A stretch of DNA of 64,000 bases. Source: an uncultured delta proteobacterium (lineage in GTDB: Bacteria > Desulfobacterota > Binatia > Binatales > Binataceae). A program made the position numbers and the translations under genes. The notes under the pieces are model-generated. The model was not told the origin of the DNA and did not search any database. It saw nothing but the letters and a program-made list of their open reading frames with translations. Positions within the stretch are counted from its first letter, which is position 1. Each line of letters starts with the position of its first letter. Positions 12,975 through 64,000 of the stretch are shown piece by piece. The DNA lies in the NCBI GenBank assembly GCA_963833025.1, contig CAWHWI010000001.1, forward strand, positions 596,855 through 660,854, read 5' to 3'.

Positions 12975-13799
12975 TCAGTCGCCCTTGATCAGGCGATGGA
13001 TGGCGCTCAGGTGGCGCTGCGAGTCGCGCTTGCGGCCCATCGCCTCGTACATCTCGGCGGCGTTGCGATGCGCCTCGACGTTGGCGGGGTCGCATTCGAG
13101 CGTGCGCAGAAAACTGCGCAGCGCATTCTGATGCTCCTCTTTCTTGCGGTAGAGAAGTCCGAGCTTGAGGTGCACCTCGGCGCTGGCGGGAACTATCGCG
13201 GCCGCGCCGAGCAAATGGCGCATCGCACCGGCCAGATCGCCCTCGCGCTCGAGCAGCGTGGCGAGACGCATATGCGCCTCAAAGTTGCCGGGCTCGCGGC
13301 CGACCAGCTCGCTGTAGATGGTGAGCGCCTTGAGGGGATCCTCGTCAGCGACTCGGCGCGCCTCCTCGAAACGCTCGCGCACGCGGGCGGGCCCGAAACC
13401 GTCCTCGACCTTGCCGGGCTGATAGCTGCCGCTGAAGTCGAAAATCAACTGTCCCGTCTCGGCCTCGATCAGCGATGGACCGTCGCGCACGACGATGCGC
13501 CCTTCGTCGTTGACGAGTTTCAGCGAGGTGACGGAGCGGTCGGGATCGACGAGCGTACGCACCCGCTCGAGAGTCCGCTGGATCGGATCGATATGCTGAC
13601 GGGTGCCGAGCAGTTCCTTGGCTAGGCGCATCTCGAGCAGGTCGTTGAATGCGAAACGATACTTGCGGCCGCCCGCATTCAACGGCCGCACGAGATTGCG
13701 CTTGACCCAGTAGCGAATACGCTCGGGCGTGACCGCGAGAATTCTCGCAGCCGTGCGCGTGGAAAAAGTCTCAGCCCCGCCGCCCGCCTCTGCCGTCAT
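12975..13799 (-). CDS. MerR-family HTH regulator fused to TPR repeats
   Basis: N-terminal HTH (TRTAARILAVTPERIRYWVKRNLV); C-terminal TPR-like repeats; likely start at the internal Met MTAEAGG. Confidence 0.7.
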   Translation of the reverse strand: MTAEAGGGAETFSTRTAARILAVTPERIRYWVKRNLVRPLNAGGRKYRFAFNDLLEMRLAKELLGTRQHIDPIQRTLERVRTLVDPDRSVTSLKLVNDEGRIVVRDGPSLIEAETGQLIFDFSGSYQPGKVEDGFGPARVRERFEEARRVADEDPLKALTIYSELVGREPGNFEAHMRLATLLEREGDLAGAMRHLLGAAAIVPASAEVHLKLGLLYRKKEEHQNALRSFLRTLECDPANVEAHRNAAEMYEAMGRKRDSQRHLSAIHRLIKGD

Positions 13800-17775: not shown

Positions 17776-18084
17776 CCCGGTGGTAACTACGATTGCTTTG
17801 GTTTGTTTGCCGAAGGTCGCCTGCGGCTGAGGCCGCTCGGCGCCAAGGACTTTTGGAGTGGCTGCCAAGAATAAATCTCCCCGAGCAAACGCCGAAAACG
17901 CGGCGATGCCAGGTATTTCAATCTGCAAGATGCAGACCGCAATGATTCTACATGATTTAGTTGCGGTTCCTAAACTTGAATATGCGAACGGCAATGCATT
18001 GAGCGATTGAGGCCGTGCAATTTGCAATAATCTGGGCGACGAACGATCTTGATGCCCCCGACCCATTGAACACTAGAATGCTAA

Positions 18085-41512: not shown

Positions 41513-44500
41513 CTATTCACCGGACCCGCTTAGCGGGATCGTCTGGTGCGCACTCGGTTGCGAGCCAGAGGTGATCGCATTTGCCGCGTTGTCAAAGATA
41601 GTCACCGCCGAGGGAGGTTGCGGGCCCGGCGCAGCCGGAATAAATTCCACCGTCAGGTTGCACGTTTTCTGCGGGAACAATTGCGGGGGGCAGTTCGTGG
41701 CCGATCCGGCAAACCCGAATTCCTGCGGCGTCATCACCGGGACCGAAAACGGGCTCGCAAAGGTGATCGGCGGCCCTTCCTCGGCCGAATTGCTCAGCGT
41801 GAATGTCACCGATTTCTCCTGTCCTACTTTTACACTGCCGAAATTACCCGACGGCGGATTGATAACCAGGTTTCCGGGAACTGGGGTCGCGGTCGGAGTG
41901 GGGGTCGGTGTCTTTCTGCCCTTCCGGACTTTGCCTGTCCCCTTGAGTGTAATCGTCCGCGACGGATCTGTTCCATTGTTCGCGATGACGAGCGTCGCGG
42001 TGCGAACGCCCGTATCGACGGGGGCGAAGGTGATCGCGACCTCGCACTTGGCGCCCGCGGCGAGCTGACCCACGCAGTTCTGCGAGGCGGAGAACTCGCT
42101 GTTGCTGGACTGGATCGAGCTGATCACGATGGGTGCGTCTTCTGTCATTTTATCGCTGAGCGTGAGCTCGGCAGGCTTGCTCACCGAACCAAGGTTAACG
42201 TCGCCGAAGTTAATCGCGTCCGGCTTGGTCCCGAGCGTCGCTTGTACCGGCGTTGGCGTGGCCGTAGGCGTGACGGTCGGAGTGGCTGTCGCGGTCGATG
42301 TCGCCGTCGCAGTAGCCGTGGCAGTCGCGGTCGCTGTGGGCGTAGCCGTGCCGGTTGCGGTGGCAGTTGGCGTCACAGTCACCGTGGCTGTCGCCGTAGC
42401 GGTCGCTGTTGGAGTTGCGGTTTGAGTCGCAGTGGCTGTCGGAGTTGAGGTTAATGTCGCCGTGGCGGTCGCAGTTGCCGTGGCCGTTGCAGTCGGCGTC
42501 GATGTGGCAGTGGCAGTCGGAGTTGCGGTTCGAGTCGCGGTGGCCGTGGCAGTTGCCGATGCCGTCGGCGATGCGGCGATGCTGATATTTGCAACGTAAG
42601 CGTTCTCACTTCCGCCGAGAGTCGGCTGCTCGCCGCTCGATGCGCCATTGAAGTTTGGAGAATCGGTGTACCCGGTCACATATGCGGAGCTGCCACCCGG
42701 ATCCGCTGAAATACCTGTACCAAAATCCCACTTGCTTCCACCCAGGTAGGTGGAGAAAGCCGCAGTCGAGCCAGCCGGATTGAGTTGAGTAACGAAGCTG
42801 TCGACTTCCTCGAAATCCCCTGCATATATGGTTCCGGTTACACTTGGGGTGACGGCAAGCGCATTGAAGTTGCCGGGGTGAAAACCATTGGGATAAATCG
42901 GGCTGAAGCTCGTGCCGGCATCGGCGCTCTTCAGAATTGTGTATTGATTATTGCTGCCGAAATATATTGTTCCGGGAGTGGTAGTCGGATCGACTGCAAC
43001 GCCCCCGCCATCCGTTCCGTATTCGAAAGTATTGTAGCTCGGACAGCCGAAGCAGTTGGCGAAGCCCCCGCTGCTTCCTACCAATCCTTGAAACTGAGTG
43101 CTCCCGTATATGACCGTTGGGTAGCTGGTCGGGTCCGCCGCCATGGACAGAATTGGAGAATATCCTATGGTCCGCAGGAAAGTGTTGTTGTTGGGATCGT
43201 AAAGTTCCGAAAACGATTCCGGAGGATTAGGCTCCCCTAATTGACCGCCAGCCCAAAGGACCTTTCCATTATTGAGCAGGATCGCAGGTGCAGACACGCC
43301 AAAGCCCGCAATATGAAAGGCGTTCATCAGGGTCGTAGGCGAAAATGTGGCGGTGGCTGGGTTATACAATTCAGCAGCGGTGAGCGCCGATGTATCACTG
43401 GCAACCCCTCCTGCCACCAGCACGAGCCCGTTGGTGAGGAGAACAGCCCCATGATCCGCCCTCGGCGTCGTCATGTTTCCGACCGAAGAAAATGTGCCCG
43501 ACGATGGGTCGTACAGCTCGGCGCCCGCCAAGTCGCCTATCCCCTCGTCTTGCCCGTCGGACGTGTTGGCGGTGCCGCCGGTGATCAACACCTTGCCATC
43601 TGGAAGCAACGTGGCCGTGTGAGCATGGCGGGCGTTAGCCATGCTGCCCGTGGCTGAAAAAGAGTTGGTCGAGGGATCGTATATCTCCGCAGTGGCCGTA
43701 GCCGCATTCGAGGACGTGATTCCGCCGGCGATCAACACCTTGCCGTTCGCCAGAAGAGTGGCAGTATGCTTGTAACGCAGCATCGTCATGTTGCCGGCCG
43801 TCAGAGTGAACGTTCCAGTCGTGGGATTGTAAAGCTCAGCGGTTCCGCCGGCGTCGAAGAAGTCGCCGCCCGCGACCAACACATCTCCGTCGAGATCGGT
43901 GCCGGTCCCCTGGAGAAGGGTGGCCGTGTCCAGGTAGCGTGGGGTCGTCATATTGCCTGTCGCAGTGAATGTGCCCCCGCTGAAAAGCTCAGCGCTCTTA
44001 AGAACGCTATCGGAAGAGTCGAGTCCTCCGGTCACCAGTACAGAGCCGTTCTCAAGCGTCGTCCCCGTGTGAATGGCCCGCGCCGTGATCATGCCGCCAG
44101 TGGTTGTCCAGCTACCGGCCGAGGGGCTGAAGATTTCCGCGCTCGCGGTGGGACTGGCGTAATCGGCGGCGGTATAACCGCCACTGGCTAGCACTGTGCC
44201 ATCGGAAAGAAGATCCAATGGAAAGATCTGGCGCGCGACGTTCATGCTGCCGGTCGCCTGAAAGTTGCTGGTTCGGAACAGTCCGTTCGCGGTACCCGCG
44301 TAGAGATTAGCGGGCGATTGCGGATCGACCAGCAGTGACAATACTTCAGTGTTTGGCAAAGTCGGAACAACCTGGAAACTGGCGCCCGCATCGGTGCTCT
44401 TCACGACCCCGCTCAATTGAGTGCCCGCATAGATCGTCGTGGGCGACGTGCTTGGGTCCTGGGCAAGGGACCTGACAATCTGGCCTGTCAGCGCAGTCGC

Positions 44501-46930
44501 ATTGAAAGTAGTGCCGCTGTCAGTACTTTTTAACAAGCCATTCGGAGTAGCGGCGTACACCGTGGTATGGTTATTCAAATCAACCAACGCGCCTGCTGGT
44601 TGGCCGGTAAGCCCGGTTGGGCTGAACGAAACGCCGCCGTCCGTACTCTTCAGAATTCCGCTTCGATTGGTTCCAACGTAGATCGTGCTGGTGTTAACCG
44701 GATCGATCGAGATGTCCAGCACAGCGCTCGCCATCGTGCTCTGCGCCGTCGGATTGAAGGTGGCGCCGTCGGTCGCTTTGAAGAGCTGGAAGAAAGGAGA
44801 CGATGGGCCTTGCAACGGACTCGCGAGCGGAAAATTCGTAAATGTCGTGACTCCGGTAACGTGGGCGCTTCCCCTCGAGTCCACCGATATCGCTTCCGCG
44901 GCATCAGCTCCGGTGTCACCAAGATAGGTGGAGTAAACAATTGAGCCACTGCTGTTGAGCTTCGTCACGAAAGCATCGTCGAAGCCCCCAAAAGTAGTCT
45001 GGAAGGCACCTGCAGTCGTCGGGAAATCCGTCGACCAGGTGAAGCCGGCGACGTAACTGTTGCAGTTCGATTGGCAACCCGGTTCCAGGGCGATTCCGTC
45101 GCCCTGGTCATAGCCTATACCGCCGAGATACCGTGCAAAGATCAGGTTGGTACCGGAACTGTTGAACTCGGCCACAAAGCAATCAGCGCCACCGTGATAC
45201 GCACCACCAACGGTGGTCGGTAAAGTCGCCACGTTGGCAATCCCCGTTATGAAGGCGTCGCCGGAGCCGTCCACCGCTATCGAGGCGCCATACAACCCAA
45301 TTCCATCATTCGCGGGTCCCGGACCGCCGGAATAGTAAGTCGAGTAGAGAAGCTGAGAACCGTCCGCGCTCACACTGGTAACGAAAGCATCAAACGCATT
45401 GGGCGCGGAGGTCTGGTACGCGCTCTCTGTCACGGGGAAATCACTCGTAGTTGTTTGACCGGTTATGAACGCGGTGCAGTTCGAGCTGCATCCGGCCGGA
45501 ATGGCGACGGAGGTCGCTACCGAGCCACCCACTCCTAGCGTGGGGTCCGTCGACGTGGAACCGCCAAGAAGTATCCCAAACACCAGAGACGAACCGTCGG
45601 AACTGAGTTTCGCTACGAAGGCGTCGTAGAGCCCGGCAAAACTCTGTCCCGCAGTTGTCGGAAAGTCTGAGGAATAAGTCTCTCCCGCGACATAGACCGC
45701 GCCAGTCGAATCGACCGTTATTCCGAGGCCCTCGTCGAATGACGAGCCGCCAAGGTAGGTGGAATAAACCAGTGCTCCGGCAGAATTAAACTTTGTGACA
45801 AAGGCATCGCAGCCGCCCTGCGCGGTGCCCAGATAGACCCCTGCGGTCACCGGGAAATTGGCCGAGCATGCGAATCCCGTCACGTAGGCATTGCTGCTCG
45901 CATCCGAAGCGACTGCAAGAGCCCCGTCCGGCCCTGAACCGCCCAGGTAGGTCGAGAAAGTCAGAATCGGATCGATGACGATCGGCCTGCTCCGATCGTA
46001 CTCCCCCACTTGCATTCCCGCCTCATGCGCGCCATGCAGCCGCCATCCGCCTCCTATCGTCCGCCGCGCGCCGCCGCGCTCCTGGTAAATCGCCGGCGCA
46101 TGCTCGACTAGCTTGCCCTTGCCGACGCTCACGATCAGATCGCCCTGCTTATCGAGGGCCAATTTGCCCGCACCGCGGAAGCTCAGCCGAATCGCATTCG
46201 GGTCGGCGCCGGGCGCAAGGCGGAAATCATACTCGAGCTGGCCCTGCGCGCTGCCGTGGTAGATCAGATCGATTCCCGGATAGACATTCTTGAGCTCGAC
46301 TTTGGCGTAGTTGGGAACATCCGTCCGCCATTTCTTCGGGTCCTTGCCGATGAAATAGTTGCTGCGGGCCGCCATCCGATCGACGCCGATAATTTGTGGC
46401 GTGCGCGCGGCGCCCTTGAGCCCGATTCGCACTACTGCCGGCTTGCCAACCTTCCCCAATGCCTCTTTCGCACCGCCAGCGGGCAACAACGAACGCGGCT
46501 GAAGCTTCTCGCGCAACCCGTCGCCTGCGGTCTTTCCGCGAATGGAAAATGTGGATGACGGCCCTCCTATCGCGCCGTGCAAACGGACCGCATCGCGCGA
46601 CGCGGCATCGCGCATCGACAACACCGCCTCGCGCGCAGTCAGAAACAGCGTGTATCCCTGTCCACGCGTTAGAAACTTCACCGCCGGATCGCTCTGGCCC
46701 AGGTTCGGCTCGAAGCTTAGCGGCATCTTCGATAAGGAAATTCGCGGCGCATGATTGGCCGCGACCATCGCCCGCGGCGACGGCAGCTCCGCATGATCGC
46801 TCGCGCGCGCGGACTGCGACGACGCGATCGTTCGCGGCGCGCGCATCGCCACCATCGCGGCGATCGCCGGTACAGCGATGCAGGCGACCACAATTACACC
46901 GATGTGGACGCTTCCGCCCCGTTTTTTCAT
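41513..46930 (-). CDS. Giant secreted protein (1805 aa): signal peptide, N-terminal DUF7948-like domain, SBBP beta-propeller repeats, Kelch/galactose-oxidase-like repeats, Thr/Ala/Pro-rich linker, two C-terminal choice-of-anchor-D (ASH/HYDIN-like) domains
   Basis: Repeated YSTYLGGS..DxGxGIAVDxxGxAYVTGxTxSxDFP units; ..GKVLxxGG.. Kelch blades; ATATATPTATAT linker; GDVNLGS..C..L..C.V.F.P domains. Confidence 0.85.
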   Translation of the reverse strand: MKKRGGSVHIGVIVVACIAVPAIAAMVAMRAPRTIASSQSARASDHAELPSPRAMVAANHAPRISLSKMPLSFEPNLGQSDPAVKFLTRGQGYTLFLTAREAVLSMRDAASRDAVRLHGAIGGPSSTFSIRGKTAGDGLREKLQPRSLLPAGGAKEALGKVGKPAVVRIGLKGAARTPQIIGVDRMAARSNYFIGKDPKKWRTDVPNYAKVELKNVYPGIDLIYHGSAQGQLEYDFRLAPGADPNAIRLSFRGAGKLALDKQGDLIVSVGKGKLVEHAPAIYQERGGARRTIGGGWRLHGAHEAGMQVGEYDRSRPIVIDPILTFSTYLGGSGPDGALAVASDASSNAYVTGFACSANFPVTAGVYLGTAQGGCDAFVTKFNSAGALVYSTYLGGSSFDEGLGITVDSTGAVYVAGETYSSDFPTTAGQSFAGLYDAFVAKLSSDGSSLVFGILLGGSTSTDPTLGVGGSVATSVAIPAGCSSNCTAFITGQTTTSDFPVTESAYQTSAPNAFDAFVTSVSADGSQLLYSTYYSGGPGPANDGIGLYGASIAVDGSGDAFITGIANVATLPTTVGGAYHGGADCFVAEFNSSGTNLIFARYLGGIGYDQGDGIALEPGCQSNCNSYVAGFTWSTDFPTTAGAFQTTFGGFDDAFVTKLNSSGSIVYSTYLGDTGADAAEAISVDSRGSAHVTGVTTFTNFPLASPLQGPSSPFFQLFKATDGATFNPTAQSTMASAVLDISIDPVNTSTIYVGTNRSGILKSTDGGVSFSPTGLTGQPAGALVDLNNHTTVYAATPNGLLKSTDSGTTFNATALTGQIVRSLAQDPSTSPTTIYAGTQLSGVVKSTDAGASFQVVPTLPNTEVLSLLVDPQSPANLYAGTANGLFRTSNFQATGSMNVARQIFPLDLLSDGTVLASGGYTAADYASPTASAEIFSPSAGSWTTTGGMITARAIHTGTTLENGSVLVTGGLDSSDSVLKSAELFSGGTFTATGNMTTPRYLDTATLLQGTGTDLDGDVLVAGGDFFDAGGTAELYNPTTGTFTLTAGNMTMLRYKHTATLLANGKVLIAGGITSSNAATATAEIYDPSTNSFSATGSMANARHAHTATLLPDGKVLITGGTANTSDGQDEGIGDLAGAELYDPSSGTFSSVGNMTTPRADHGAVLLTNGLVLVAGGVASDTSALTAAELYNPATATFSPTTLMNAFHIAGFGVSAPAILLNNGKVLWAGGQLGEPNPPESFSELYDPNNNTFLRTIGYSPILSMAADPTSYPTVIYGSTQFQGLVGSSGGFANCFGCPSYNTFEYGTDGGGVAVDPTTTPGTIYFGSNNQYTILKSADAGTSFSPIYPNGFHPGNFNALAVTPSVTGTIYAGDFEEVDSFVTQLNPAGSTAAFSTYLGGSKWDFGTGISADPGGSSAYVTGYTDSPNFNGASSGEQPTLGGSENAYVANISIAASPTASATATATATRTATPTATATSTPTATATATATATATLTSTPTATATQTATPTATATATATVTVTPTATATGTATPTATATATATATATSTATATPTVTPTATPTPVQATLGTKPDAINFGDVNLGSVSKPAELTLSDKMTEDAPIVISSIQSSNSEFSASQNCVGQLAAGAKCEVAITFAPVDTGVRTATLVIANNGTDPSRTITLKGTGKVRKGRKTPTPTPTATPVPGNLVINPPSGNFGSVKVGQEKSVTFTLSNSAEEGPPITFASPFSVPVMTPQEFGFAGSATNCPPQLFPQKTCNLTVEFIPAAPGPQPPSAVTIFDNAANAITSGSQPSAHQTIPLSGSGE
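42235..42575. repeat. Imperfect 6-nt-periodic tandem repeats (GCN GTN) encoding the Thr/Ala/Pro linker of the giant protein
   Basis: Direct reading of the sequence; opposite-strand ORFs giving AVAVAV peptides are artefacts of this repeat. Confidence 0.7.
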
Positions 46931-53400: not shown

Positions 53401-54115
53401 AGTCCAATTATTCTCGACCTGCCTCGCCGAGGAATTTTTTCCCGAAGTCAACGACGCCGCCGCGACCGTGCTCGAGCGCCTGCGGCTCAAGGTGACACCG
53501 ATTCGCGGCGCGTTTTGCTGCGGCCAGGTGGCTTTTAATGAAGGCATGCGCGAACAGGCCGTCGATCTCGCGCGGCGATTTCTGAACTCTGTCCAACCCG
53601 GCGTTCCGATCGTCGTGCCGTCGGGCTCATGCACGAGCATGCTGAAAATTTTCTACAGCGACTTGCTCGCCGGTGATCCCGCGCTCGCCGCCAAGGCGAC
53701 GGCGATTCGGCCGTGGGTCTTCGAGCTCTCGCAATTCATCGTCAACGTGCTGAAGGTGAAATATCTGGGCGCGCGCTACGAGCGGCCTGTCGCGTATCAT
53801 CCATCGTGTCATCTGATGCGGGAGCTCGGCGTACGCAACGAACCGATGACGCTGCTGAGTGCGGTGGCGGGAATCAAAATTTGCGAATTGCGCGATCGCG
53901 AAGAGTGCTGCGGCTTCGGCGGGATGTTCTCGGTGAAATTCCCGCACATTTCGGCGTCGATGCTCGACGACAAGATGGCGGGCATCAAGGAGAGCGGCGC
54001 GGAAGTGGTCGTCGCCAACGATTGCGGATGCCTGATGCAGATCGGCGGAGGCTTAAGCCGCGCAGGAGAGAAAATCGAGGTGCGCCATCTGGCGGAAGTG
54101 CTGGCCGCGCGGTAG
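53393..54115 (+). CDS. lutA: Lactate utilization protein A ((Fe-S)-binding CCG-domain protein)
   Basis: Two CCG cysteine-rich motifs (FSTC.., CCGQ, HPSCH, CCGFGG). Confidence 0.85.
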   Translation: MTEVQLFSTCLAEEFFPEVNDAAATVLERLRLKVTPIRGAFCCGQVAFNEGMREQAVDLARRFLNSVQPGVPIVVPSGSCTSMLKIFYSDLLAGDPALAAKATAIRPWVFELSQFIVNVLKVKYLGARYERPVAYHPSCHLMRELGVRNEPMTLLSAVAGIKICELRDREECCGFGGMFSVKFPHISASMLDDKMAGIKESGAEVVVANDCGCLMQIGGGLSRAGEKIEVRHLAEVLAAR

Positions 54116-54126
54116 GTCTGCGCCGG

Positions 54127-55839
54127 TCAGTGGCGTTCGTGGACGTATAGGCCTGGGGCTGGCTCTCCTGCTTTGTATAGGTCGCTGCCGAGAGTCTTAG
54201 GCGCGGGGCGTTCGTTGCCTGAGCGGGCGGCTACCCACTTTACCCAGTGGTCCCACCAGGTGCCTTTGTTCTCGACCGCGGCTTTGGCCCATTCGTCGGG
54301 ATCTTCGGGGAGGCGCGCGCCGACATAGTAGCGGGCTTTGAAGTTGCCGGGCGGATTGACGAGGCTCTGGATGTGGCCGCTCGAGCCGAGCACGAATTCG
54401 ACTCGTCCGCCAAACATCCGGGTCGCGCGATAGCATGCGCGCCATGCGCAGATGTGGTCGGTCATACCGGCGACCAGGTAAATGTCGTTCTTGACCGCGT
54501 GCAAATCGATCGGCGTGCCCAGCACCGAGACCTCGCCGCCGCCGTTGGCCAGCGGATTTCTCAGGAACAGATCGAGAAAGCCCGCGTGCAGCTTGGCCGG
54601 AAGATTGGTCGCGTCGGCGTTCCAGTAGAGGATGTCGAACGGCGCGGGATCGTTGCCGAGCAGGTAGTTGTTGACCCAATAGTTCCACACCAGATCGTTC
54701 GGACGCAGCCACGCGAACACGCGCGCCATGTCGCCGCCGTCGAGCACGCCTTTTTCCGCCGAGCGATCGCGCGCGGCCTTGATCGCATCCTCAGTCGCGA
54801 ACATCCCGGTCATCGAGGGCAGGCTCGTGTCGAGCATCGTCACCAGCAGCGTCACCGCGTTGACGCGCTTGTCGCCCGACGCCGCGAGATGCCCGAGCAT
54901 GAGCGACGTCGTGATGCCGCCGGCGCATACGCCGAGCACATTGCAATCGGGACTGCCGGTGATCTCGCAGGCGGCGGCAATCGCGTCTTTGCACGCGGTC
55001 ACGTATTCGTCGAGTCCCCAGTTGCGATCGCGCGGCGTCGGGTTGCGCCAGCTAATCGTGAACATCGGCAGGCCGTGCTTGACCGCGTACTCGACGAAGC
55101 TGCGCCCCGGCGCGAGATCCATGATGTAGAACTTGTTGATTTGCGGCGGGATGAACACGAGTGGGCGCTCGTAGACCTTGTCGGTCGCGGGCGCGTACTG
55201 GATCACCTCGCAAACCGGGCTGCGGAACACCACCGCGCCTTTTGACAGCGCGAGATTTCTGCCGACTTCGAACGGCCGCTTGTCGACCGTCTCTGGCATC
55301 CCGCCGTTGTTCCACAGGTCGCCGAGGAAGTTGCGCAGCCCCCACATCACGCTCATCCCCGCCGTGTCGAAGGCGCGCTTGAGCGCGGCGGGATTGAGCC
55401 AGAACGCGTTGGTGGGCGCGAGCGCCTCGGTCATCAGCGTAACCGCGAACTTCTGCTGCTCGACACTCTTCCACTCGATGCTCTCGTCCTCGTTGACGAG
55501 ATCGTGCATCGCGGTGCGCCACGCCAGGTACGCCTGCATCATGCGATGGTAGAGCGGATGCTGCGTCCAGGCGGGATCGCCGAAACGCTTGTCGCCGGCT
55601 TCTGGAGCCACCGACGATACGCCCGCCACGATCTGCCCCAGCTCGAGCGACAGTTGAAATGCGCGCGAGGCGACGGTGGCGGGCTGCGACGCGATATGCG
55701 TCAGCAGGGTCGTCAGCGTTCCGACAACCTGGGTGGTATCGAGGCCGACGAACGGATTGGCGCCGAGGAGCGCGTTGAGCGCGGGATGGTTTTCCTCGGG
55801 GGTCAGAATTTCAGGCTGCCGCTTGGCTGCACTGTCCAT
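54127..55839 (-). CDS. phaC: Class I poly(R)-hydroxyalkanoate synthase
   Basis: 570 aa alpha/beta hydrolase with lipase-box-like GVCAGG and a PhaC N-terminal domain. Confidence 0.85.
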   Translation of the reverse strand: MDSAAKRQPEILTPEENHPALNALLGANPFVGLDTTQVVGTLTTLLTHIASQPATVASRAFQLSLELGQIVAGVSSVAPEAGDKRFGDPAWTQHPLYHRMMQAYLAWRTAMHDLVNEDESIEWKSVEQQKFAVTLMTEALAPTNAFWLNPAALKRAFDTAGMSVMWGLRNFLGDLWNNGGMPETVDKRPFEVGRNLALSKGAVVFRSPVCEVIQYAPATDKVYERPLVFIPPQINKFYIMDLAPGRSFVEYAVKHGLPMFTISWRNPTPRDRNWGLDEYVTACKDAIAAACEITGSPDCNVLGVCAGGITTSLMLGHLAASGDKRVNAVTLLVTMLDTSLPSMTGMFATEDAIKAARDRSAEKGVLDGGDMARVFAWLRPNDLVWNYWVNNYLLGNDPAPFDILYWNADATNLPAKLHAGFLDLFLRNPLANGGGEVSVLGTPIDLHAVKNDIYLVAGMTDHICAWRACYRATRMFGGRVEFVLGSSGHIQSLVNPPGNFKARYYVGARLPEDPDEWAKAAVENKGTWWDHWVKWVAARSGNERPAPKTLGSDLYKAGEPAPGLYVHERH

Positions 55840-55917: not shown

Positions 55918-56947
55918 TCAGGATGACACAAGTTCCAAGCCGTGCTCGAACATTCGCGGCGCCGACAGCGCCGTGTCTTCCCATAATGGATCGTGGCGCT
56001 TGCCGCGCCTGTGCAGCATCAGGTTGAAGCAGGTGATCACGCCGAAACGGTAGCCCGCGAATGCGCGAAACCATCGCACTTCGGGAATCGAAACCGGAAA
56101 GCCGGCCGCTTCAGCGTACGTATCGACGATCTCGTCGGCGTTGAGCAGCGAGCCGCGGCCGGGATCCACCCCCGCGCCGGTGGCGACGACCCAGCTTCCG
56201 GGGTCTGAAAAAAAGCAAATCCAGCCGAGGTCGAGCAGCGTCGCGCCGACCAGCGAGATTTCCCAATCGATCAGCGCGACGACGCGTTCCTCGTTGAACA
56301 GCACGTTCGACCATTGGAAGTCGCCGTGGACGCATCCGATGCGAGCGCCGGTGGGCAGGCTTGAGCGCAGGCGCTCGCGAAGTTCGGGCGCGCGCGCGAC
56401 GACGGCGGGATCGAGCGTCGGACGATCGAGTAGGTAGTCGAGGCGCTTGAGCTCCTCGCTGAGTGCGAACGGCTCGCCCCACGCCTCGCGTCGCGGCTCC
56501 CAGGGAACGTTGTGCAGCGCGGCCATCGTCGCGATCCCCGCTGCGCGCCAGACGTTTCAGGTGCGCGTGAGGTAGGGGAGATTCGCTGAGCTTGAATCCC
56601 TCGACAAACCCGGCGACGAGATATGGCCGATCGAAGAACTCAGGCTCGTCGCCGTACCAGATGATCGGCGGCACCGCGACCGGCGTGCCGGCCAGCGACG
56701 CCATCACACGCGCCTGCCGCACGATGTCGGCGGGGCCCGAGATTTTGACGCCGGGCGGCGCGATGCGCACGACATATTTTCCCGCGGGCGTCACGTTCGG
56801 ATCGCTGCGCTCGAGGATGAAGCTGTAGCTGAAGCCGGCGTGGCCCGGCAGCGATTCGAGTGAATGCGCTCGCGCGCCGGAGTCACCGGTCTTCGCACGC
56901 ACCAATGCGGTCAGCTGCGCGGTTACCTGTTCGAAATTTCCCGGCAT
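55918..56947 (-). pseudogene. Aminoglycoside/choline-kinase-type phosphotransferase (APH family) disrupted by a frameshift at a G4 run
   Basis: N-terminal half in ORF 56111-56947, C-terminal half (HGDFQWSNVLF, IDWE motifs) in ORF 55918-56526; the frames join if GGGG at ~56536 is read as GGG. Confidence 0.6.
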
Positions 56948-56966
56948 GGCAGACGAGCTGGCGCTG

Positions 56967-57617
56967 CTAACCCTTCATCCCGGTTTTCGCCGACGCGGGA
57001 TGCAGGCTCGACTTGGCGCTGGGTCGCGAATCGACGCGCTTGAACCACCCGTTCACGTTCTTCAGCGACGGGTCGAGCGGCTGCCTGACGCTGCCGCCGA
57101 AGTCGAGCGCGCAATACAAAATGATGTCGGCGACAGTGAAGCGATCGCCCGCGATGTACTGCTTGCCCTCGAGCAGCTTGTCGAGCCACTTGAGCTTGTC
57201 CTGGACGATTGCCTTCAAGCCGGCCGCCGCCTCGGGCAGGATGCGCATCCGATCCTTGAACATCTGCGCGCCCTCGGAATAGCGGAAGCCATTGTAGAGA
57301 TGCTCTGTTATGAGCAGCTCGACGCGGCGCTGCCACTGGCGGGCCTCGGCGCGTTCCTCGGCGGTCGTGCCGATCAGCGCAGGCGTCGGATGCTTCTCCT
57401 CAAGGTATTCCCAAATCGCGACGGTCTCGCCGATACACTTGCCGTTGTCGAGCTCGAGCGCCGGCACTTGTCCGCCGGGATTGCGGTCGGTGTAGGGCGG
57501 CTTGCGATTTTCCGCCGTCATCATGTCGACGTTCTTGCTGGGAATCGTAATTCCCTTCTCGGCCAGGAACATTCGCATCGCGCGCGGGTTGGGTCCAAAA
57601 GCATCGTAGAGCTGCAT
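56967..57617 (-). CDS. Glutathione S-transferase
   Basis: Thioredoxin-like N-terminal domain (MQLYDAFGPNPRAMRMFLAEKGI) and alpha-helical C-terminal domain; start at the internal Met. Confidence 0.8.
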   Translation of the reverse strand: MQLYDAFGPNPRAMRMFLAEKGITIPSKNVDMMTAENRKPPYTDRNPGGQVPALELDNGKCIGETVAIWEYLEEKHPTPALIGTTAEERAEARQWQRRVELLITEHLYNGFRYSEGAQMFKDRMRILPEAAAGLKAIVQDKLKWLDKLLEGKQYIAGDRFTVADIILYCALDFGGSVRQPLDPSLKNVNGWFKRVDSRPSAKSSLHPASAKTGMKG

Positions 57618-57733
57618 AGTCAGTAGCCTCGCGAAAATAGACTTTTGCGGGACTATACAACGGACGCTCGAAGGCGGGAACCCGAATTCGGGGCATGTTG
57701 CGCTGCGATCAGGCCGCATGTAGGAATTTGCTG

Positions 57734-59125
57734 ATGCGATTTTGTCCGCAATGTGGCGCGCCGCTGATGGCCGGAGCGAAGTTCTGCGTGGACTGCGGCT
57801 GCGCGCTGGCCACTCCAGCGTCGGGCGCAGGCGAGGCGGGCGGCTTCAGGGGCGGCGCGAACATCGGACGTAACAAGATTACGACGGCGTTCGTGTTCGT
57901 GTTCGCCGCGATCACCGTGGTGGGTCTGGGGGCCGCCGCGTGGATAATGATGCGGACGCCCGACGTGGTGCGCGAGCAACTCGCCGTCGCACCGCCGGTC
58001 GCAATCGCTCCCAGCGCCGCTCCCGCGTCGAATCCAGCCAATGCCGCGCCGCCCGCGGCTGCGCCGGACCAGAACGCCGCGGCGGAGGGAAGTCAGAACG
58101 GCGGCTTGCCGCCGGGACATCCCACCGTCGAGCTCCCGACAGAGGCTCGCACGTTTATCGACAAGATCGAAAAAGAAGCTCTCGCAAAGCCCCGCGACGC
58201 CGGCGCCTGGGACAAGCTGGGCACGGTTTCGATGCGCGCCGCGATGTTCGATCAAACCTACTACGCCAAGGCCGAGGACGCGTACGGCCACGTGCTCAAG
58301 TTGGAGCCTGACAACCTCGAAGCGCTCCGTGGCATCGGCGATATCGACTACGACAAGCAGCATTACGACGAAGCGGTGGCGGCATACGAGCACTATCTGA
58401 AGAAGAAACCGGACGATCCGGAAGTTCGCACCGACCTCGGCACGATGTATCTCTACACGGGCAACGCCGATCAGGCGGTGGTGCAGTACAAGAAGGCGAT
58501 CGCCGCCAAGCCCGGATTTTTCCAGGCGTACTACAACATGGGAATCGCGTACGCGCAGGAAAATAAACCCGATGACGCGGACGCGACCCTCAAGCAGGCG
58601 ATGGCGCTAGCGCCTGACGATAATGCGCGGGACAGGGTGAAGGAGCTGATCGCAAAACTCAGCGGTGCGCCCACTCCGACCGCGTCGATACAGGCAGCGT
58701 CCGCAGCGACTCCCGCCGGATTGGCAGCCGCGAAGAGTTCAGGGGCGGCGGCGAAGAGTCCAGCTGCGGCGGCGGGCTCTCCCGCAGCGTCAGCGGCGCT
58801 CGCCGCGCAGGCATCCGGATCGCCGGCAGCCTCGCCAACGGCTGGAGCACAGGATTTTCACGGCGCTATCGAGCAGATGGTGCGTGGGCTGCCGATCGCA
58901 GGACCAAAGGTCGGCTCCGTCGAGTGGCCAGACAAGCTCAAGGCGCGGGTCTTGATGGACAACTTTCCGATGGATGAAATGCCGCCGTTTGCAAAAACCA
59001 AGTTCCTGACCGACTTGAAGGCCGGAATCGACAGCGCCAAGAAAGACAACAACATTTCATCGCCGGTCGAGCTCAATATCGTTGACGGCGCAAGCGGCCG
59101 CGTGATGGAAACCATTACTCAGTAG
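57734..59125 (+). CDS. Zinc-ribbon / single-TM / TPR-repeat protein
   Basis: MRFCPQCGAPL..CVDCGC zinc ribbon, one TM helix, Ala/Pro-rich spacer, 4-5 TPR repeats; ends ..GRVMETITQ*. Confidence 0.65.
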   Translation: MRFCPQCGAPLMAGAKFCVDCGCALATPASGAGEAGGFRGGANIGRNKITTAFVFVFAAITVVGLGAAAWIMMRTPDVVREQLAVAPPVAIAPSAAPASNPANAAPPAAAPDQNAAAEGSQNGGLPPGHPTVELPTEARTFIDKIEKEALAKPRDAGAWDKLGTVSMRAAMFDQTYYAKAEDAYGHVLKLEPDNLEALRGIGDIDYDKQHYDEAVAAYEHYLKKKPDDPEVRTDLGTMYLYTGNADQAVVQYKKAIAAKPGFFQAYYNMGIAYAQENKPDDADATLKQAMALAPDDNARDRVKELIAKLSGAPTPTASIQAASAATPAGLAAAKSSGAAAKSPAAAAGSPAASAALAAQASGSPAASPTAGAQDFHGAIEQMVRGLPIAGPKVGSVEWPDKLKARVLMDNFPMDEMPPFAKTKFLTDLKAGIDSAKKDNNISSPVELNIVDGASGRVMETITQ

Positions 59126-59126
59126 C
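59097..59126 (+). repeat. 30-bp direct repeat, copy 1 (3' end and stop codon of the TPR gene)
   Basis: gccgcgtgatggaaaccattactcagtagc; 28/30 identical to 62754-62783. Confidence 0.6.
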
Positions 59127-59224
59127 CAGCCGCGCCATCCGACCGCCGCAACGCTCAATCGTCGATAGCGGTCGATCGTCGCATTCAAGCGATAAAGCTG
59201 GCCCGGCCAAAATAATGGTCAAGC

Positions 59225-59271
59225 GCGGGACTCGAACCCGCATGGAGGTTGCCCTCGCGAGAATTTTAAGT
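59225..59271 (-). repeat. Partial copy of tRNA-Leu(UAA), anticodon loop through T-stem only (attL-like tRNA fragment)
   Basis: 43/47 identical to the corresponding part of the full tRNA at 62466-62551; no matching 5' acceptor/D-arm upstream. Confidence 0.6.
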
Positions 59272-59486
59272 GCGCTTCAGATGATCTAGAATCGCTGATT
59301 AGCCGAGTCGGGCTACATAGGGAGTCCGTTAGGTTACTTGGAGAAGAAATTTTGAGAAATTCACGCTTCGATGAAAACTTTGCTTGTAATAAACCATCTA
59401 AGTGTGATTAAACGACGGGTGGCAATCGGCGGCTCGTAGTGAAGGCACCGTTCTGACCGCTGCCAAGTGGGGAGGGACTGTGCCGT

Positions 59487-62423
59487 ATGCGCCGTATCGC
59501 GGTTGCCGTCTGGTCGCTTGCGCTCGCCCTGGTTACGCTCGGTTTTAGTGTACCTGCCGCTGCGGCCGGGCTGACGGTCACCGCCAGCGTTGCGTTCGGC
59601 AACGTGGACTTCGGCGTTACCGGTGCGACCAGCGCTAGCAAGAGCGTCAGGATAACCAATCCTCTCACCGGCCAGCCGGTTACAGGATTGAGTGTTCAGA
59701 TCACCGGTGCGGACGCCAGCGAGTTTGCAATCAGCAGCAACGGATGCACGTCAACGCTGGCCAAAGACACCAACTGCACGGTGATGCTGACCTTCACGCC
59801 CGCCGCGCTTGGCACACGCAACGCATCGCTGGCGGTCAGCGATACAGCGAACGCGAATGCCGGGTCGGCCGCTCTAAGCGGCGTCGGTGTCCCGGGCAAG
59901 CTTACGATCACTCCCCTGACCTCGAACTTCAGCAATATAGTTGTTGGAGCTACCAGCGCTGCAAAGACGACTACGCTTAAGAATCTCACCGGCGCGACTC
60001 TCCACATCGACAGCGTGGCGCCGTCGGGAGACTTCTCGAAGGCGAGCGACGGATGCAGCGGCAACGATCTGGTGCCGAGCGCGATCTGCGCAATCACCGC
60101 GACCTTCAGTCCCACCCAGACAGGTGCTCTCAGCGGAAACATGAGTATTACCGACGACGCGGCGAGCAGCCCCCAGTCGGTCACGCTTGAAGGGACCGGA
60201 ATACTGGCGAAGCCGACGTTCTCGTCGCCCTCGATTTCGTTCGGCAGGGTGCGGGTAGGCACTACGTCGGAGCCGACTAGCATCACGCTGTTCAACCCCA
60301 ACGTCCTGGCTATGCAAATTACGTCGATCACCACGAGCGGACCGTTCGCGGCAAATGGTGCCGCATGCGGCTCGCAGATTGGGGCGGGCGGAAACTGTCA
60401 AATCTCGATTACGTTCGATCCGACCAGCGACCCTACTCAGACAGGCACATCCGAGACCGGCAAACTGATCGTCGCCGACAACGCGACCGGGAGCCCGCAG
60501 ACCTTGAGTCTCAGCGGTGTAGCATTCGGCATCGCGCCGTCACCAACACCCACAGCAACCGCGACCGCAACTGCCACTGCCACAGCGACCGCGACCGCAA
60601 CTGCCACTGCCACAGCGACCCCAACTGCAACCGCGACCCCTTCGGTCGCGATTATCGGAACGGTGGAGGGTGGGCTTGGCCCCGTCTCAGGCGCTACGGT
60701 GACGCTCTATGCGGCGGGCACGGCTTACGGCTCGGGTGCTACAAGCTTGGGCAGCACAACCACATACGATGGCTACTTCATCCTGCCTTACACTCCGCCG
60801 GCCGCGCCCACAGTACTCTATCTGGTCGCGCTCGGAGGTAATGCCGGGTCCGGGAGCAACTCGGCGATCGGTTTGATGGGAGTGTTGGGGATGTCCAATG
60901 CCCTGCCTCAAGGGCTGCTCACGATCGACGAATTTACTACCGTGGCCGCCGAGTGGGCGCTGGCGCAGTTCATCGACTCGACGGGCCAGATCATCGGGGC
61001 GCCATCGAGCAACGCGACCGGCTTTGTCAATGCGGTCAACCAGTTGCAGGCTGATCTCGTCGATATCTCGACGGGCGAGCCAACGAGTTTCTGGAGCACT
61101 CAGCTCTCCGGTGACGGCCTGCAGCGGATGGTTACGATTGCGAACATCCTGGCGGCGTGCGTGGAGAGTTCCGGATCGTCGTCGAGCGCATGCACCACGC
61201 TGGTGAGCGGCGTCGGCACCACGTTGACGGCGGCGCATATGATGGCGACCGAACCGTCCGCGAACGTAGCTGCGTTTTTCGCTCTTCAGGGCGCGTCTCC
61301 GCCCTTTGCTGACGGTCTGAGCACCCAGCCCGACGGCTTTGAGATCGCGCTCGGTTTGGGTTATGACCCTGATCCCTCATCATTTAGCGGCTCCTTTTTC
61401 GACGGCCCCCAATTTCTGGCAATCGACGCCGCCGGCAACGTCTGGGTGACGAACACTGGTATGACCTTTGGTAACGACATCAGCGTGACCGAGTTGACCC
61501 CCAGCGGCGGCTTCATCTTCAACAACATCAACACCAGCGGCGCAAACTTCGACTTCCCGCAGGGCGTGGCAATCGACGCTGTCGGCAACGTCTGGGTGGC
61601 GAACTACGATGGCAACAGCGTGACTGTGTTGCCGCCCGGCTGCACCCCCACCGAATTCGGAGGTTGCACAGCCGGCAACTTCAACAACTCGTTAATCAGC
61701 AGCGCCAACTTCAACGGGCCGGTCGCAGTGGCAATCGACGCCGCCGGCAACGTCTGGGTGGCGAATAACGGCGGCAACAGCGTGACCGAATTGATCTCCA
61801 GAGTCGAATGGGCGGCGGCCCTCTATTTCGGTTTCGACAACTTCGACGGCCCGGCCGGCGTGGCAATCGACGCCGCCAGCAACGTCTGGGTGACGAATGA
61901 ATTGGGCGACAGCGTGAGCGAGGCCTCCGGCGGCGTTTTCGACTTCAACTTCACGAACAACTTCTTCGACGCAAACTTCGACTTCCCGCAGGGCGTGGCA
62001 ATCGACCCCGCCGGCAACGTCTGGGTGACGAACAACGCTGGCAACAGCGTGACCGAGTTTACCTCCAGCGACTTTTTCTTGCCCTTCACCAACGACGACA
62101 CCACCGGCGCCAACTTCGACGGCCCGGCCAGCGTGGCAATCGACGCCGCCGGCAACGTCTGGGTGACGAACAACCTTGGCAACAGCGTGACTGAGTTGCC
62201 GGCCGGCTGCTTCCCTGGAAGTTGCACAGCCAACAACTGGGGCGCCAGCGGCGCCAACTTCAAGGGGCCGGGCGGCGTGGCAATCGACGCCTCCGGCAAC
62301 GTCTGGGTGGCGAACAAGGACAGCGACACCGTGACCGAGATCTTGGGCGTGGCGCGCCCGGTCCTGACGCCGCAGGTCGCCTGTCTTAAGAAAACGCCGC
62401 CGCAAGCCGTCTGTCTGCCGTAG
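59487..62423 (+). CDS. Secreted protein (978 aa): signal peptide, three choice-of-anchor-D domains, Thr/Ala/Pro linker, central domain, six NHL-type beta-propeller repeats
   Basis: Repeated GVAIDAAGNVWVxNxxGNSVTE units; N-terminal domains with the G.V..G..S..K...I.N.G...L.I..C..L....C.V.F.P pattern. Confidence 0.85.
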   Translation: MRRIAVAVWSLALALVTLGFSVPAAAAGLTVTASVAFGNVDFGVTGATSASKSVRITNPLTGQPVTGLSVQITGADASEFAISSNGCTSTLAKDTNCTVMLTFTPAALGTRNASLAVSDTANANAGSAALSGVGVPGKLTITPLTSNFSNIVVGATSAAKTTTLKNLTGATLHIDSVAPSGDFSKASDGCSGNDLVPSAICAITATFSPTQTGALSGNMSITDDAASSPQSVTLEGTGILAKPTFSSPSISFGRVRVGTTSEPTSITLFNPNVLAMQITSITTSGPFAANGAACGSQIGAGGNCQISITFDPTSDPTQTGTSETGKLIVADNATGSPQTLSLSGVAFGIAPSPTPTATATATATATATATATATATATPTATATPSVAIIGTVEGGLGPVSGATVTLYAAGTAYGSGATSLGSTTTYDGYFILPYTPPAAPTVLYLVALGGNAGSGSNSAIGLMGVLGMSNALPQGLLTIDEFTTVAAEWALAQFIDSTGQIIGAPSSNATGFVNAVNQLQADLVDISTGEPTSFWSTQLSGDGLQRMVTIANILAACVESSGSSSSACTTLVSGVGTTLTAAHMMATEPSANVAAFFALQGASPPFADGLSTQPDGFEIALGLGYDPDPSSFSGSFFDGPQFLAIDAAGNVWVTNTGMTFGNDISVTELTPSGGFIFNNINTSGANFDFPQGVAIDAVGNVWVANYDGNSVTVLPPGCTPTEFGGCTAGNFNNSLISSANFNGPVAVAIDAAGNVWVANNGGNSVTELISRVEWAAALYFGFDNFDGPAGVAIDAASNVWVTNELGDSVSEASGGVFDFNFTNNFFDANFDFPQGVAIDPAGNVWVTNNAGNSVTEFTSSDFFLPFTNDDTTGANFDGPASVAIDAAGNVWVTNNLGNSVTELPAGCFPGSCTANNWGASGANFKGPGGVAIDASGNVWVANKDSDTVTEILGVARPVLTPQVACLKKTPPQAVCLP
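60561..60620 (+). repeat. Perfect 30-bp tandem duplication (gcgaccgcaactgccactgccacagcgacc x2) inside the Thr/Ala linker coding region
   Basis: Exact repeat read directly from the sequence. Confidence 0.8.
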
Positions 62424-62465
62424 CGCGGATTCGGCGCGATCGATTCCGCGCGCGACGTATTTCAA

Positions 62466-62551
62466 TGCCGGGGGGCGGGACTCGAACCCGCACGGAGGTC
62501 GCCCTCCTGAGAATTTTAAGTCCTCTGCATATACCATTTCACCACCCCGGC
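62466..62551 (-). tRNA. tRNA-Leu(UAA): tRNA-Leu (anticodon UAA), class II with long variable arm
   Basis: Reverse complement reads GCCGGGGUGGUGAAAUGGUA..GAGGA-CUUAAAA-UUCUC..GCGGGUUCGAGUCCCGC.., close to E. coli tRNA-Leu(UAA); CCA not encoded. Confidence 0.8.
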
Positions 62552-62753
62552 TACTGACTGCGCGGGACCGTTAAATCATAGACACACCCGGTTACGCATC
62601 GTCTTTTGACCTTCTACCGAACTGCGCAACCTGTCTCTGGTGTGGGGATCCAGGCCTAATCGTCTCGGCACCGCCCAAAAAGAGCGATTGAGGTACGACG
62701 GTTTCGCCCCGCGCCAGTTTGGGGTATTAGAAATCCGGGTTGAGTTCGCTGGC

Positions 62754-62783
62754 GCCGCGTGATGGGAGCCATTACTCAGTAGC
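62754..62783 (+). repeat. 30-bp direct repeat, copy 2 (reads ..ARVMGAITQ* in frame, a relic of a TPR-gene-like 3' end)
   Basis: gccgcgtgatgggagccattactcagtagc. Confidence 0.6.
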
Positions 62784-62819
62784 TAATTGCGCGAATAGCC
62801 AGTCGCGCGATGGAGTCAG

Positions 62820-63353
62820 ATGCAGGGCGAACTGGTCAGGCTGCGCGCTTACGAAAAAGCCGATGCCGACGCGTTGTTCCGATGGTTCTCGGACGAGGAA
62901 GTCACGCGATGGCTGGGGCCGCCCAATCTGCTCTCGCGCGCGCAGCAGGAAAAATTCATCGAGCTGGCGTCGGCCGGCGGCGACGACGCGAAGTACTTCG
63001 CGATCGAAACGCTCGACGGCAAGCTGGTCGGCGATTGCGGACTCAGGTTTATCGACTGGAAGAGCCGCAAGGCGGAATTCTTCCTCACGATCGGCGAGAA
63101 ACAGCTCTGGGGCAAGGGCTTGGGCACCGACGCGCTCCGCATCGTGATTCGATTGGCGTTCGACAAAATGAACTTGAATCGATTATGGCTCACCGTCCTG
63201 GCCGATAACTCCCGCGCCGTGCGATGCTACCAGAAATGCGGCTTCGTCCGCGAAGGACTGCTGCGACAGGAGAGTTTCGTCGACGGAAAATATCGCGACG
63301 TTCACCTGATGGCCCTGTTGCGCGAGGACTACCTGCGAACTCGAGGTGCATAG
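62820..63353 (+). CDS. GNAT family N-acetyltransferase (RimJ/RimL-like)
   Basis: 177 aa; acetyl-CoA binding region LWGKGLGTDAL and the conserved GNAT fold. Confidence 0.8.
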   Translation: MQGELVRLRAYEKADADALFRWFSDEEVTRWLGPPNLLSRAQQEKFIELASAGGDDAKYFAIETLDGKLVGDCGLRFIDWKSRKAEFFLTIGEKQLWGKGLGTDALRIVIRLAFDKMNLNRLWLTVLADNSRAVRCYQKCGFVREGLLRQESFVDGKYRDVHLMALLREDYLRTRGA

Positions 63354-63356
63354 ACT

Positions 63357-63752
63357 ATGGCATCGAAATCTTTCGAACGGCTGCAGCGCGCCGGCGACCA
63401 TCAGACGCTCCGTCTCACTCACTATGGACGCAAGAGCGGCCGCCCCTACGAAGTGACTATCTGGTACCTGGTCGACAACGGCCGGCTGTATCTCATCTCC
63501 GCCAATGCGAATCGCAACTGGGTGCGCAATGTGAAGGTGCGCCCGGCCATCTCGCTGCGGGTTGGCGACGAAGTCTTCAACGGCAACGTGCGCGTGATTA
63601 CCGACAAGCAGGAGCGCGACAAGGTGAACGGCCTCACCTTGCGCAAGTATTGGTACCTCGCTCCGATGCTTCGAGTTGGACAGTTTCTGATGTCGATGGG
63701 GATGGTGCGCGACAACACCGCCCACTTTGAAGTGATCCTCGCGGACGAATAG
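63357..63752 (+). CDS. Deazaflavin-dependent nitroreductase (Ddn/DUF385) family protein
   Basis: LTHYGRKSGRPYEVTIWY..DNGRLYLISANA..NWVRNV pattern typical of F420H2-dependent PNPOx-like reductases. Confidence 0.7.
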   Translation: MASKSFERLQRAGDHQTLRLTHYGRKSGRPYEVTIWYLVDNGRLYLISANANRNWVRNVKVRPAISLRVGDEVFNGNVRVITDKQERDKVNGLTLRKYWYLAPMLRVGQFLMSMGMVRDNTAHFEVILADE

Positions 63753-64000
63753 CTACGACGGATCTCCGCCTTCGGCTACGCGCTTGAGGCTCTCGACCCA
63801 GTTCTGATGCCCGCGCTCGAGCATCGGCCGCAAATACCACCACGCGAGTTTCGGCACGAGGCCGTTCTGACATTCCTCGGTGACGACGCGGCATCCGCCA
63901 CGCCCATCCGGTTCGATAAGCCAGCCGTGATAGGCGCGCAGCACTCCGCGCGCGTCCCATCCGAGTTCGTGCGCCGGTTCGAAGGTGATCACGCGGCTCG
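63753..64000 (-). CDS. SRPBCC (polyketide cyclase/dehydrase-like) family protein, probably partial (N-terminus beyond the window end)
   Basis: C-terminal 79 aa show the SRPBCC pattern; the ORF is open to the window edge. Confidence 0.45.
   Translation of the reverse strand, partial: SRVITFEPAHELGWDARGVLRAYHGWLIEPDGRGGCRVVTEECQNGLVPKLAWWYLRPMLERGHQNWVESLKRVAEGGDPS

Follow-up and report, generated by a model that had tools for sequence, protein, structure and literature searches.

A degenerate tRNA-Leu(UAA) islet in a Candidatus Binatus genome, with the tRNA gene apparently part of the inserted DNA

When a tRNA gene stands beside a partial copy of itself, was it the target of an insertion, or did it arrive with the inserted DNA? 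A 64,000-nucleotide stretch of contig CAWHWI010000001.1 (positions 596,855 to 660,854), from an uncultured member of the Binataceae, raises this question; we refer to the whole stretch as the window. Near its right end, a complete tRNA-Leu(UAA) gene and a partial copy of the 3' half of that gene enclose a single large gene for a putative secreted protein. The initial annotation took the two repeats for attL and attR, the attachment (att) sites left by site-specific integration into a tRNA gene. Comparison with related loci upholds part of that reading: the geometry of the repeats fits recombination of the integrase type, but the idea that a tRNA gene stood here as the target does not hold up. 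We consider it moderately probable that the partial copy is the worn distal att scar of an old integration beside tRNA-Leu(UAA), that the scar was formed elsewhere, and that the whole unit was later inserted here.

The tRNA gene, on the minus strand at 62466-62551, is called as tRNA-Leu(taa) by ARAGORN, which we used for all tRNA calls, and is the only one found in the window. It is also the only match over 58500-63500 to Rfam, against which RNA families were searched. The core of the partial copy, here called B', lies at 59225-59271, where 43 of 47 nucleotides are identical to the tRNA, and is recovered independently by a repeat finder. BLAST extends the similarity to 59225-59282 against 62475-62532 (50/58 identical, same orientation, E 9e-14). 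A degenerate 47-mer that accommodates both sequences has no match in the window besides the copy and the tRNA, and 0 matches in 100 dinucleotide-preserving shuffles. B' comprises the T arm, the variable arm, the 3' strand of the anticodon stem and the anticodon loop; neither a D arm nor a 5' acceptor strand is present. The extent first assigned to it, from the anticodon loop through the T-stem, is correct. We ruled out that B' belongs to a second, complete tRNA gene, as ARAGORN calls none at 59151-59350. One full tRNA and one fragment in the same orientation are what the window holds.

Whether the tRNA gene was resident before the insertion can be read from related loci. The gene on the left of the unit, X (57695-59125, plus strand, stop codon at 59123-59125), is conserved and has TPR and zinc-ribbon Pfam matches. 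It has 836 homologues, of which those with a named source come mostly from Candidatus Binatus, and it is syntenic in loci L001-L004, L024 and L025. In L001 and L002, X is followed by 37 nt, a GNAT gene and an F420H2-type gene; in L003 and L004, which have no GNAT gene, the F420H2-type gene comes after X. ARAGORN finds no tRNA within ±10 kb of X in L001-L004. On its right side, the window retains the ancestral arrangement at 62783-63353 (plus strand), where the 37-nt X-GNAT spacer, colinear with L001 and L002, is followed by the GNAT acetyltransferase gene (62820-63353; Pfam Acetyltransf_3) as the right host flank. Window 62754-62850 aligns colinearly with the X-end/spacer/GNAT junction of L001 and L002. 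Because this stretch is the ancestral X/GNAT junction, the DNA from the X stop codon to about 62753 is extra, the tRNA included.

The closer relative L024 gives the same picture. Its X falls in the same 90% protein cluster as that of the window, and the shared flank is 93.65% identical at the nucleotide level. In L024, X is followed by 60 nt, a pair of minus-strand alpha/beta-hydrolase genes, two segments called P and A' (described below), the spacer and GNAT, with neither a tRNA within ±10 kb nor the cargo gene. The empty tRNA-Leu site for which the initial annotation had looked to relatives is therefore missing: L001, L002 and L024, all without the cargo, are without the tRNA as well. Since cargo-less relatives also lack it, the tRNA belongs to the inserted unit and was not a resident target. 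On these alignments, the whole unit, with the tRNA and 41 nt of its upstream flank, is a lineage-specific insertion between two conserved genes.

The unit is about 3.5 kb long and extends from about 59137 to a point within 62592-62659. On the left, the L024 alignment stops at 59135, which places the start 11 nt past the X stop codon. From left to right, the unit consists of the segment r, B' with a 28-nt outer flank, an AT-rich leader, the cargo gene, a 42-nt gap containing a hairpin, the tRNA, its 41-nt flank and the segment v. Segment r (59137-59196, 60 nt), whose left edge is that of the L024 alignment, has its only homologue in L013/L025. Segment v (62593-62659, 67 nt) has no homologue in any examined locus; its right edge is a deletion junction, and the L024 alignment picks up again at window 62660. 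The ends of the unit (59128-59230 against 62552-62760) align no better than shuffles in either direct or inverted orientation. Terminal repeats, the hallmark of a transposon or insertion sequence, were accordingly not found, and the original right end has been lost to deletions. The X-to-GNAT zone as a whole is variable among Binatus genomes.

One other genome carries the unit. Locus L013, of which L025 is the extended version, was assembled from a separate sample (ERZ25039474) and is colinear with window 56189-62545 at 91.5% identity. The cargo gene is 91.5% identical between the two, the leader 93%, the surroundings of the fragment 89% and the flanks 93.9%. As the identity of the unit is like that of its flanks, the unit is at least as old as the split between the window and L013, and has been inherited vertically since. 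Over the shared flank, the window, L013/L025 and L024 are mutually equidistant (93.65-93.9%). L025 reads X, fragment, cargo, a 5'-truncated tRNA, a 46-nt duplicate of the GNAT start, four hydrolase/HAD genes, P, A', spacer, GNAT and F420H2; its positions 16493-17816 align to window 62700-64000, as 13252-14604 of L024 do to 62660-64000. The 5' end of the tRNA and the DNA following it were lost in L025 at a junction with a short GCCA microhomology to the spacer, and ARAGORN calls no tRNA there. The unit would now be immobile.

Where the tRNA came from is indicated by its upstream flank. The 41 nt at 62552-62592 (minus strand), which include a conserved TATGAT, match by pairwise alignment and BLAST the 41 nt upstream of a canonical tRNA-Leu(UAA) gene on L014, another contig in the same bin of a metagenome-assembled genome (MAG) as L013/L025. 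We infer that a canonical tRNA-Leu(UAA) locus was the source from which the unit was copied or moved. The window tRNA is probably redundant, given that the sister copy is truncated and that a canonical copy lies on another contig of the sister's bin, and its sequence is what would be expected of a copy drifting under relaxed constraint. The cloverleaf is complete apart from a bulged C and, in the D stem, two G.U pairs. Relative to those recovered Binatus copies that reach the positions concerned, its D arm has three unique C-to-T changes, which turn two G-C pairs into G.U, and a single additional C stands between T stem and acceptor strand. Its Rfam score is 47.8 bits (best clan match), against 57 bits on RF00005 for the canonical copy in L014. 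The extra C sits in a homopolymer run (C6/G6) and could be a sequencing error instead of a sign of early pseudogenisation. If the copy is indeed redundant, it shows a duplicate tRNA gene early in its decay.

B' is less complete than its counterpart in the sister genome. To the left of its core lie a degenerate acceptor strand ('caagc' where 7 nt are expected), a CCA-like 'tggt' and the 28-nt flank, and the fragment as a whole, a decayed 3' half of tRNA-Leu(UAA), occupies 59197-59282 on the minus strand. The copy in L013 retains an acceptor-like 7-nt 'gcgaggc' together with the 'tggt', and the 28 nt that flank B' on the outside share homology with the flank of L012b, a fragment from another MAG. 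Because of this acceptor/CCA-like end and the matching flank, B' can be placed among the full 3'-half fragments of other Binatus genomes as a decaying member. The best explanation is that, when first formed, it reached all the way from the anticodon loop to CCA.

Such fragments are numerous. Outside the window, a tRNA 3'-half pattern searched in one genome per species matched 10 stretches in five Binatus MAGs. Nearly all are fragments with the 3' acceptor strand and usually an encoded CCA; ARAGORN calls a tRNA in only one, L017, with a broken acceptor stem. Per MAG, the pattern matches as many as four times and BLAST detects as many as six fragments: the MFD09556 bin holds six fragments, the MFD01248 bin four tRNA-derived sequences and one canonical gene. 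The fragments lie at 3358-3409, 5762-5814 and 6805-6851 in L009, 3706-3759 in L011, 2160-2211 and 4686-4738 in L012, 6997-7048 in L014 and 3180-3231 in L016. In six of them (L009a, L011, L012a, L012b, L014b and L016), homology to the tRNA ends at antisense position 57-59; in B' it ends at position 56, just past the anticodon loop. Counted together, at least 10 other Binatus fragments of tRNA-Leu(UAA) stop at this point. After six of the fragments comes an AT-rich stretch of about 200 nt, conserved among them ('...tattgg.tttatttc...atgtgaaa.tgtgtaa.ttt'), which has no Rfam match.

Where fragments share a locus (L009, L012), they are spaced 1-2.5 kb apart and bracket single accessory genes. The bracketed genes encode cyclase-AAA-TPR proteins, a 721-aa NHL protein (26% identity to the cargo, E 9e-29), a methyltransferase, an MFS transporter and an RND efflux operon. 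One NHL gene ends 35 nt before the next fragment. The recurrence of fragments fits serial site-specific integration followed by decay, by analogy with known islands, and elements in Binatus appear to make heavy use of tRNA-Leu(UAA) as a site of integration. Viral contigs were scanned three times and gave no match: with the tRNA 3'-half pattern as query, with the window leader, and with the end that is conserved in the other Binatus elements.

What, then, did the element carry? Between the repeats, 59487-62423 (plus strand) is the only long open reading frame (ORF) with native third-position GC content (GC3). As first annotated, the sole cargo is a putatively secreted protein of 978 aa: it has a signal-peptide-like N-terminus (judged by eye), three choice-of-anchor-D stretches (NF012200, 111.9 bits), a Thr-Ala linker and NHL repeats that form a beta-propeller. 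In composition, the segment divides in two. The cargo gene is host-like, with GC 0.624 and GC3 0.772 against a GC3 of 0.76-0.83 in other window genes; the leader deviates, as stated for 59272-59420, where GC is 0.423 against 61.9% for the window, within the lowest-GC stretch of the window (quantile 0.0005). The full 215-nt leader (59272-59486, plus strand) has GC 0.42-0.49 and is the only part of the unit with atypical composition. It is 93% identical to the L013 leader, better kept than the cargo itself. The leader is presumably the promoter and 5' untranslated region of the cargo gene, and possibly a former arm of the element. Rfam has no RNA family in it, a scan for consensus promoters and terminators gave nothing useful, and against the leaders of other fragment-bounded modules it shows no homology beyond the tRNA-derived part.

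Full-length orthologues of the cargo are restricted to P0122 (85%, in L013/L025) and P0121 (86%), the latter in a different context after a TetR gene, on a 5,829-bp contig of JGI metagenome 3300050821 with a gap of 550 nt before the cargo and one of 340 nt behind it; a metagenome scan with P0121 as query returned only distant paralogues. The cargo belongs to a large Binatus paralogue family, and is probably now a plain resident gene for a surface or secreted protein. Between its stop codon and the 3' end of the tRNA, a GC-rich hairpin (GCGCGGA ... TCCGCGC, 62423-62451), read directly from the sequence, is possibly a terminator, one that the consensus terminator scan did not flag. Separately, the linker (60538-60651) is of Thr-Ala/Thr-Pro composition and is coded by degenerate 6-nt and 12-nt repeats. 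The linker of the orthologue (L013 4367-4476) also matches window 42252-42547, inside a 1805-aa ORF (41513-46930, minus strand) whose GC3 of 0.675 is below that of its neighbours.

In the explanation we favour, an element of the integrase type would have integrated beside tRNA-Leu(UAA) at the canonical locus and would then have been reduced to a single gene and the AT-rich leader belonging to it, its recombinase gone. A segment of about 3.5 kb, comprising the scar, the gene, the tRNA and the promoter flank, would later have been copied or moved into the variable zone after X, by illegitimate recombination or by capture at a DNA break, with no terminal repeats left. The unit would then have become fixed and immobile in the chromosome. 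By analogy, the scar was presumably made by a tyrosine-type integrase: K. P. Williams, in work of 2002 on tRNA and tmRNA integration sites, reportedly described elements of tyrosine integrases that cross over in the anticodon loop. The annotation's 'decayed islet' is apt in this respect, for no recombinase was found in the window by Pfam searches of the neighbouring ORFs and by a six-frame motif scan. The one gene between the repeats has no recombinase domain, and the scan finds no tyrosine-recombinase-like box.

Several points weigh against this explanation. The tRNA has its 3' end a mere 42 nt from the stop codon of the cargo gene, and removal of an integrase module from there must have been very clean. 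Both carrier genomes have undergone independent deletions that hide the right end of the unit and make the mechanism of insertion unreadable from the junctions. The window, L013/L025 and L024 form a trichotomy in which gain in one branch and loss in L024 are inseparable. The canonical tRNA-Leu(UAA) gene comes from the bin of the sister genome, and statements that contigs of a MAG belong to the same genome rest on binning. Finally, among the long ORFs tested in the fragment-bearing loci (L008-L017), none encodes the kind of integrase that would leave 3'-half fragments; an integrase as their source accordingly rests on geometry and analogy.

How do other accounts of the locus fare? The simplest would have the element integrate in situ, into a tRNA-Leu(UAA) gene already resident between the TPR and GNAT genes, with later loss of the integrase. 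The intact tRNA, the same-sense 3'-half repeat on its 3' side and the AT-rich leader next to the fragment are all as such an event would leave them. Yet the position is without a tRNA in every relative examined, among them L024 with its nucleotide identity of about 94%, the ancestral X/GNAT junction is intact to the right of the tRNA, and the 41 nt upstream of the tRNA match a canonical locus on another contig (L014); together these make integration in situ very unlikely. An assembly artefact, that is, a chimeric join or a collapsed repeat, is harder still to entertain. The source is probably a MAG, as its relatives are, the many tRNA-Leu fragments could mislead an assembler, and the extra C in the G6/C6 run could be a homopolymer error; against this, the order of X, fragment, cargo and tRNA was assembled independently from ERZ25039474 with 8.5% scattered differences, and we regard an artefact as extremely unlikely.

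Two further accounts dispense with a resident integrase. In one, no recombinase was ever involved: slippage or unequal exchange duplicated part of the tRNA locally, and an unrelated rearrangement placed the cargo. This would sit well with the missing integrase, with a cargo of native composition from a large Binatus paralogue family, and with a zone prone to rearrangement, as its independent deletions and hydrolase block attest. A common boundary and flank are, however, what recombination at a fixed site predicts and random duplication breakpoints do not; the inner boundary of B' equals that of many independent fragments in other genomes, and its 28-nt outer flank is homologous to that of L012b, in a fragment that once reached the CCA end. 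These matches count against local duplication, which we hold to be quite unlikely. The other account, which we find doubtful, invokes a cassette-like module, a tRNA-derived site plus one gene, moved in trans by a recombinase whose gene lies elsewhere and placed at a secondary site behind the TPR gene where, with its full tRNA, it seeded a new hot spot. In its favour, several Binatus loci have modules of one or a few genes between fragments, with no recombinase in the tested long ORFs; the NHL gene that ends 35 nt before a fragment parallels the cargo gene, which ends 42 nt before the tRNA; and the orthologue P0121 stands in a different context. Against it, the unit shows no sign of movement and was inherited vertically at a divergence like that of its flanks, the fragment and the tRNA are both decaying, this leader and the other modules have no recombination-site structure in common, and the viral-contig scans are empty. 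A bolder version would make the 3' halves of Binatus tRNA-Leu(UAA) genes the sites for short recombinase-less modules moved in trans, with a full-tRNA module transplanting the hot spot and the window unit being a silenced one; we think it rather improbable.

To place the unit that we take to have formed at the canonical locus and moved here, we compared it to known systems. By resemblance, it is a degenerate tRNA-associated genomic islet, ordinary and long dead, and nothing suggests a new kind of system. Like other such islets, it has an intact tRNA at one boundary, a same-sense 3' repeat that starts from the anticodon loop and lies on the 3' side of the tRNA, AT-rich DNA beside the repeat and an accessory cargo. 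Unlike them, it has no integrase inside and no empty-site relatives that keep an uninterrupted tRNA: the tRNA is not ancestral at the site, the codon usage of the cargo is native, and tRNA, islet and scar together form the inserted segment. Mobile elements and phages may carry a complete tRNA gene, or may excise imprecisely with host DNA, as in specialised transduction. The full tRNA with a short native upstream flank at a new chromosomal position resembles this, while the unit is without element genes, outer att repeats or terminal repeats. It also seems to differ from an integron cassette, which would pair an attC site of imperfect inverted repeats with a promoterless ORF in an array headed by an IntI integrase: the repeated site is tRNA-derived and not attC-like, and the tyrosine-recombinase motif scan of the window is negative.

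The tycheposon islands of Prochlorococcus offer a parallel for the wider set of fragments. There, repeated integration at one tRNA pushes older elements inward, and the islands contain remnants of degenerated elements and scattered partial tRNAs (bioRxiv 10.1101/2020.12.28.424599). The multiple tRNA-Leu(UAA) fragments per Binatus MAG bin are similar. In contrast to tycheposons, neither the window nor the tested ORFs of L008-L017 contain a tyrosine recombinase or a replication/packaging module; phylum and tRNA differ, and the window unit is not located at the canonical tRNA locus.

The inclusion of the tRNA in the inserted DNA is an unusual twist of modest interest, and it carries a caution for island finding. 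A tRNA with a partial tRNA repeat is usually read as integration into a resident tRNA gene, whereas here the tRNA would be cargo. The true insertion boundaries lie outside the repeat pair, and an automated caller would misreport both the target and the limits of the element. The Binatus fragments, several per genome, bracket surface proteins, STAND-like cyclases, transporters and efflux pumps, and offer an early look at how plastic the genomes of an uncultured phylum from soil can be.

The X-GNAT zone of the window contains a second repeat pair. Repeat A (59097-59125, plus strand), found by a direct repeat finder and by BLAST, is the last 29 nt of X, with weaker similarity over 59081-59135. 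It recurs as A' (62754-62782, plus strand; also in L024 and L025), a non-coding duplicate of the X 3' end ('RVMGAITQ*'). A is an 85% direct repeat of 62754-62792, and the extended match is 43/55 (E 4e-8). Segment P (62660-62753), delimited by the L024 and L025 alignments, is common to the relatives, where it lies between the hydrolase genes and A'. In L024, the pair is at 11361-11389 and about 13346-13374; in L025, it involves about 16549-16594. The start of GNAT, together with DNA upstream of it, is also duplicated in L025, over 46 nt. What the pair brackets differs between genomes: hydrolase genes, the tRNA unit or both. We considered A/A' as the att site of a larger element in the 3' end of the TPR gene and rejected this, as L024 has P and A' without tRNA or cargo. 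The gene orders of L024 and L025 instead assign A/A' to an older duplicative insertion of the hydrolase block. The pair looks like the footprint of a duplicative (Campbell-type or tandem) event in the X-GNAT spacer, after which the window lost the hydrolase genes at a junction near 62659/62660.

The DNA immediately after X is rearranged in other genomes too. On two short metagenome contigs, L005 (X 88% identical) and L006 (X 82%), X runs directly into a convergent gene on the minus strand. In L005 (2170-2355), that gene is joined right after the X stop codon and has an alpha/beta-hydrolase-like C-terminus; in L006, the corresponding stretch is 1492-1707. Judging from these contigs, the point just past the X stop codon is a recurrent rearrangement boundary.

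Two observations concern other parts of these loci. L010 (5650-5721) and L017 (6898-6983), from two MAGs, contain near-full tRNA-Leu(UAA) sequences in which homology is lost at the 5' acceptor strand and gives way to a sequence common to both. At a distance of 1.1 kb from the near-full tRNA, L010 has a DUF2924 gene and a large serine recombinase gene with a frameshift (6798-8000), which suggests a second, serine-recombinase type of element targeting the 5' end of tRNA-Leu(UAA). Farther to the left of the unit, L025 has about 2.2 kb of extra DNA (2443-4669) between a CCG-domain gene and a PhaC gene, corresponding to window 54113-54129; the segment is absent from the window and from L024 and encodes a 633-aa protein with a faint AAA_10 match.

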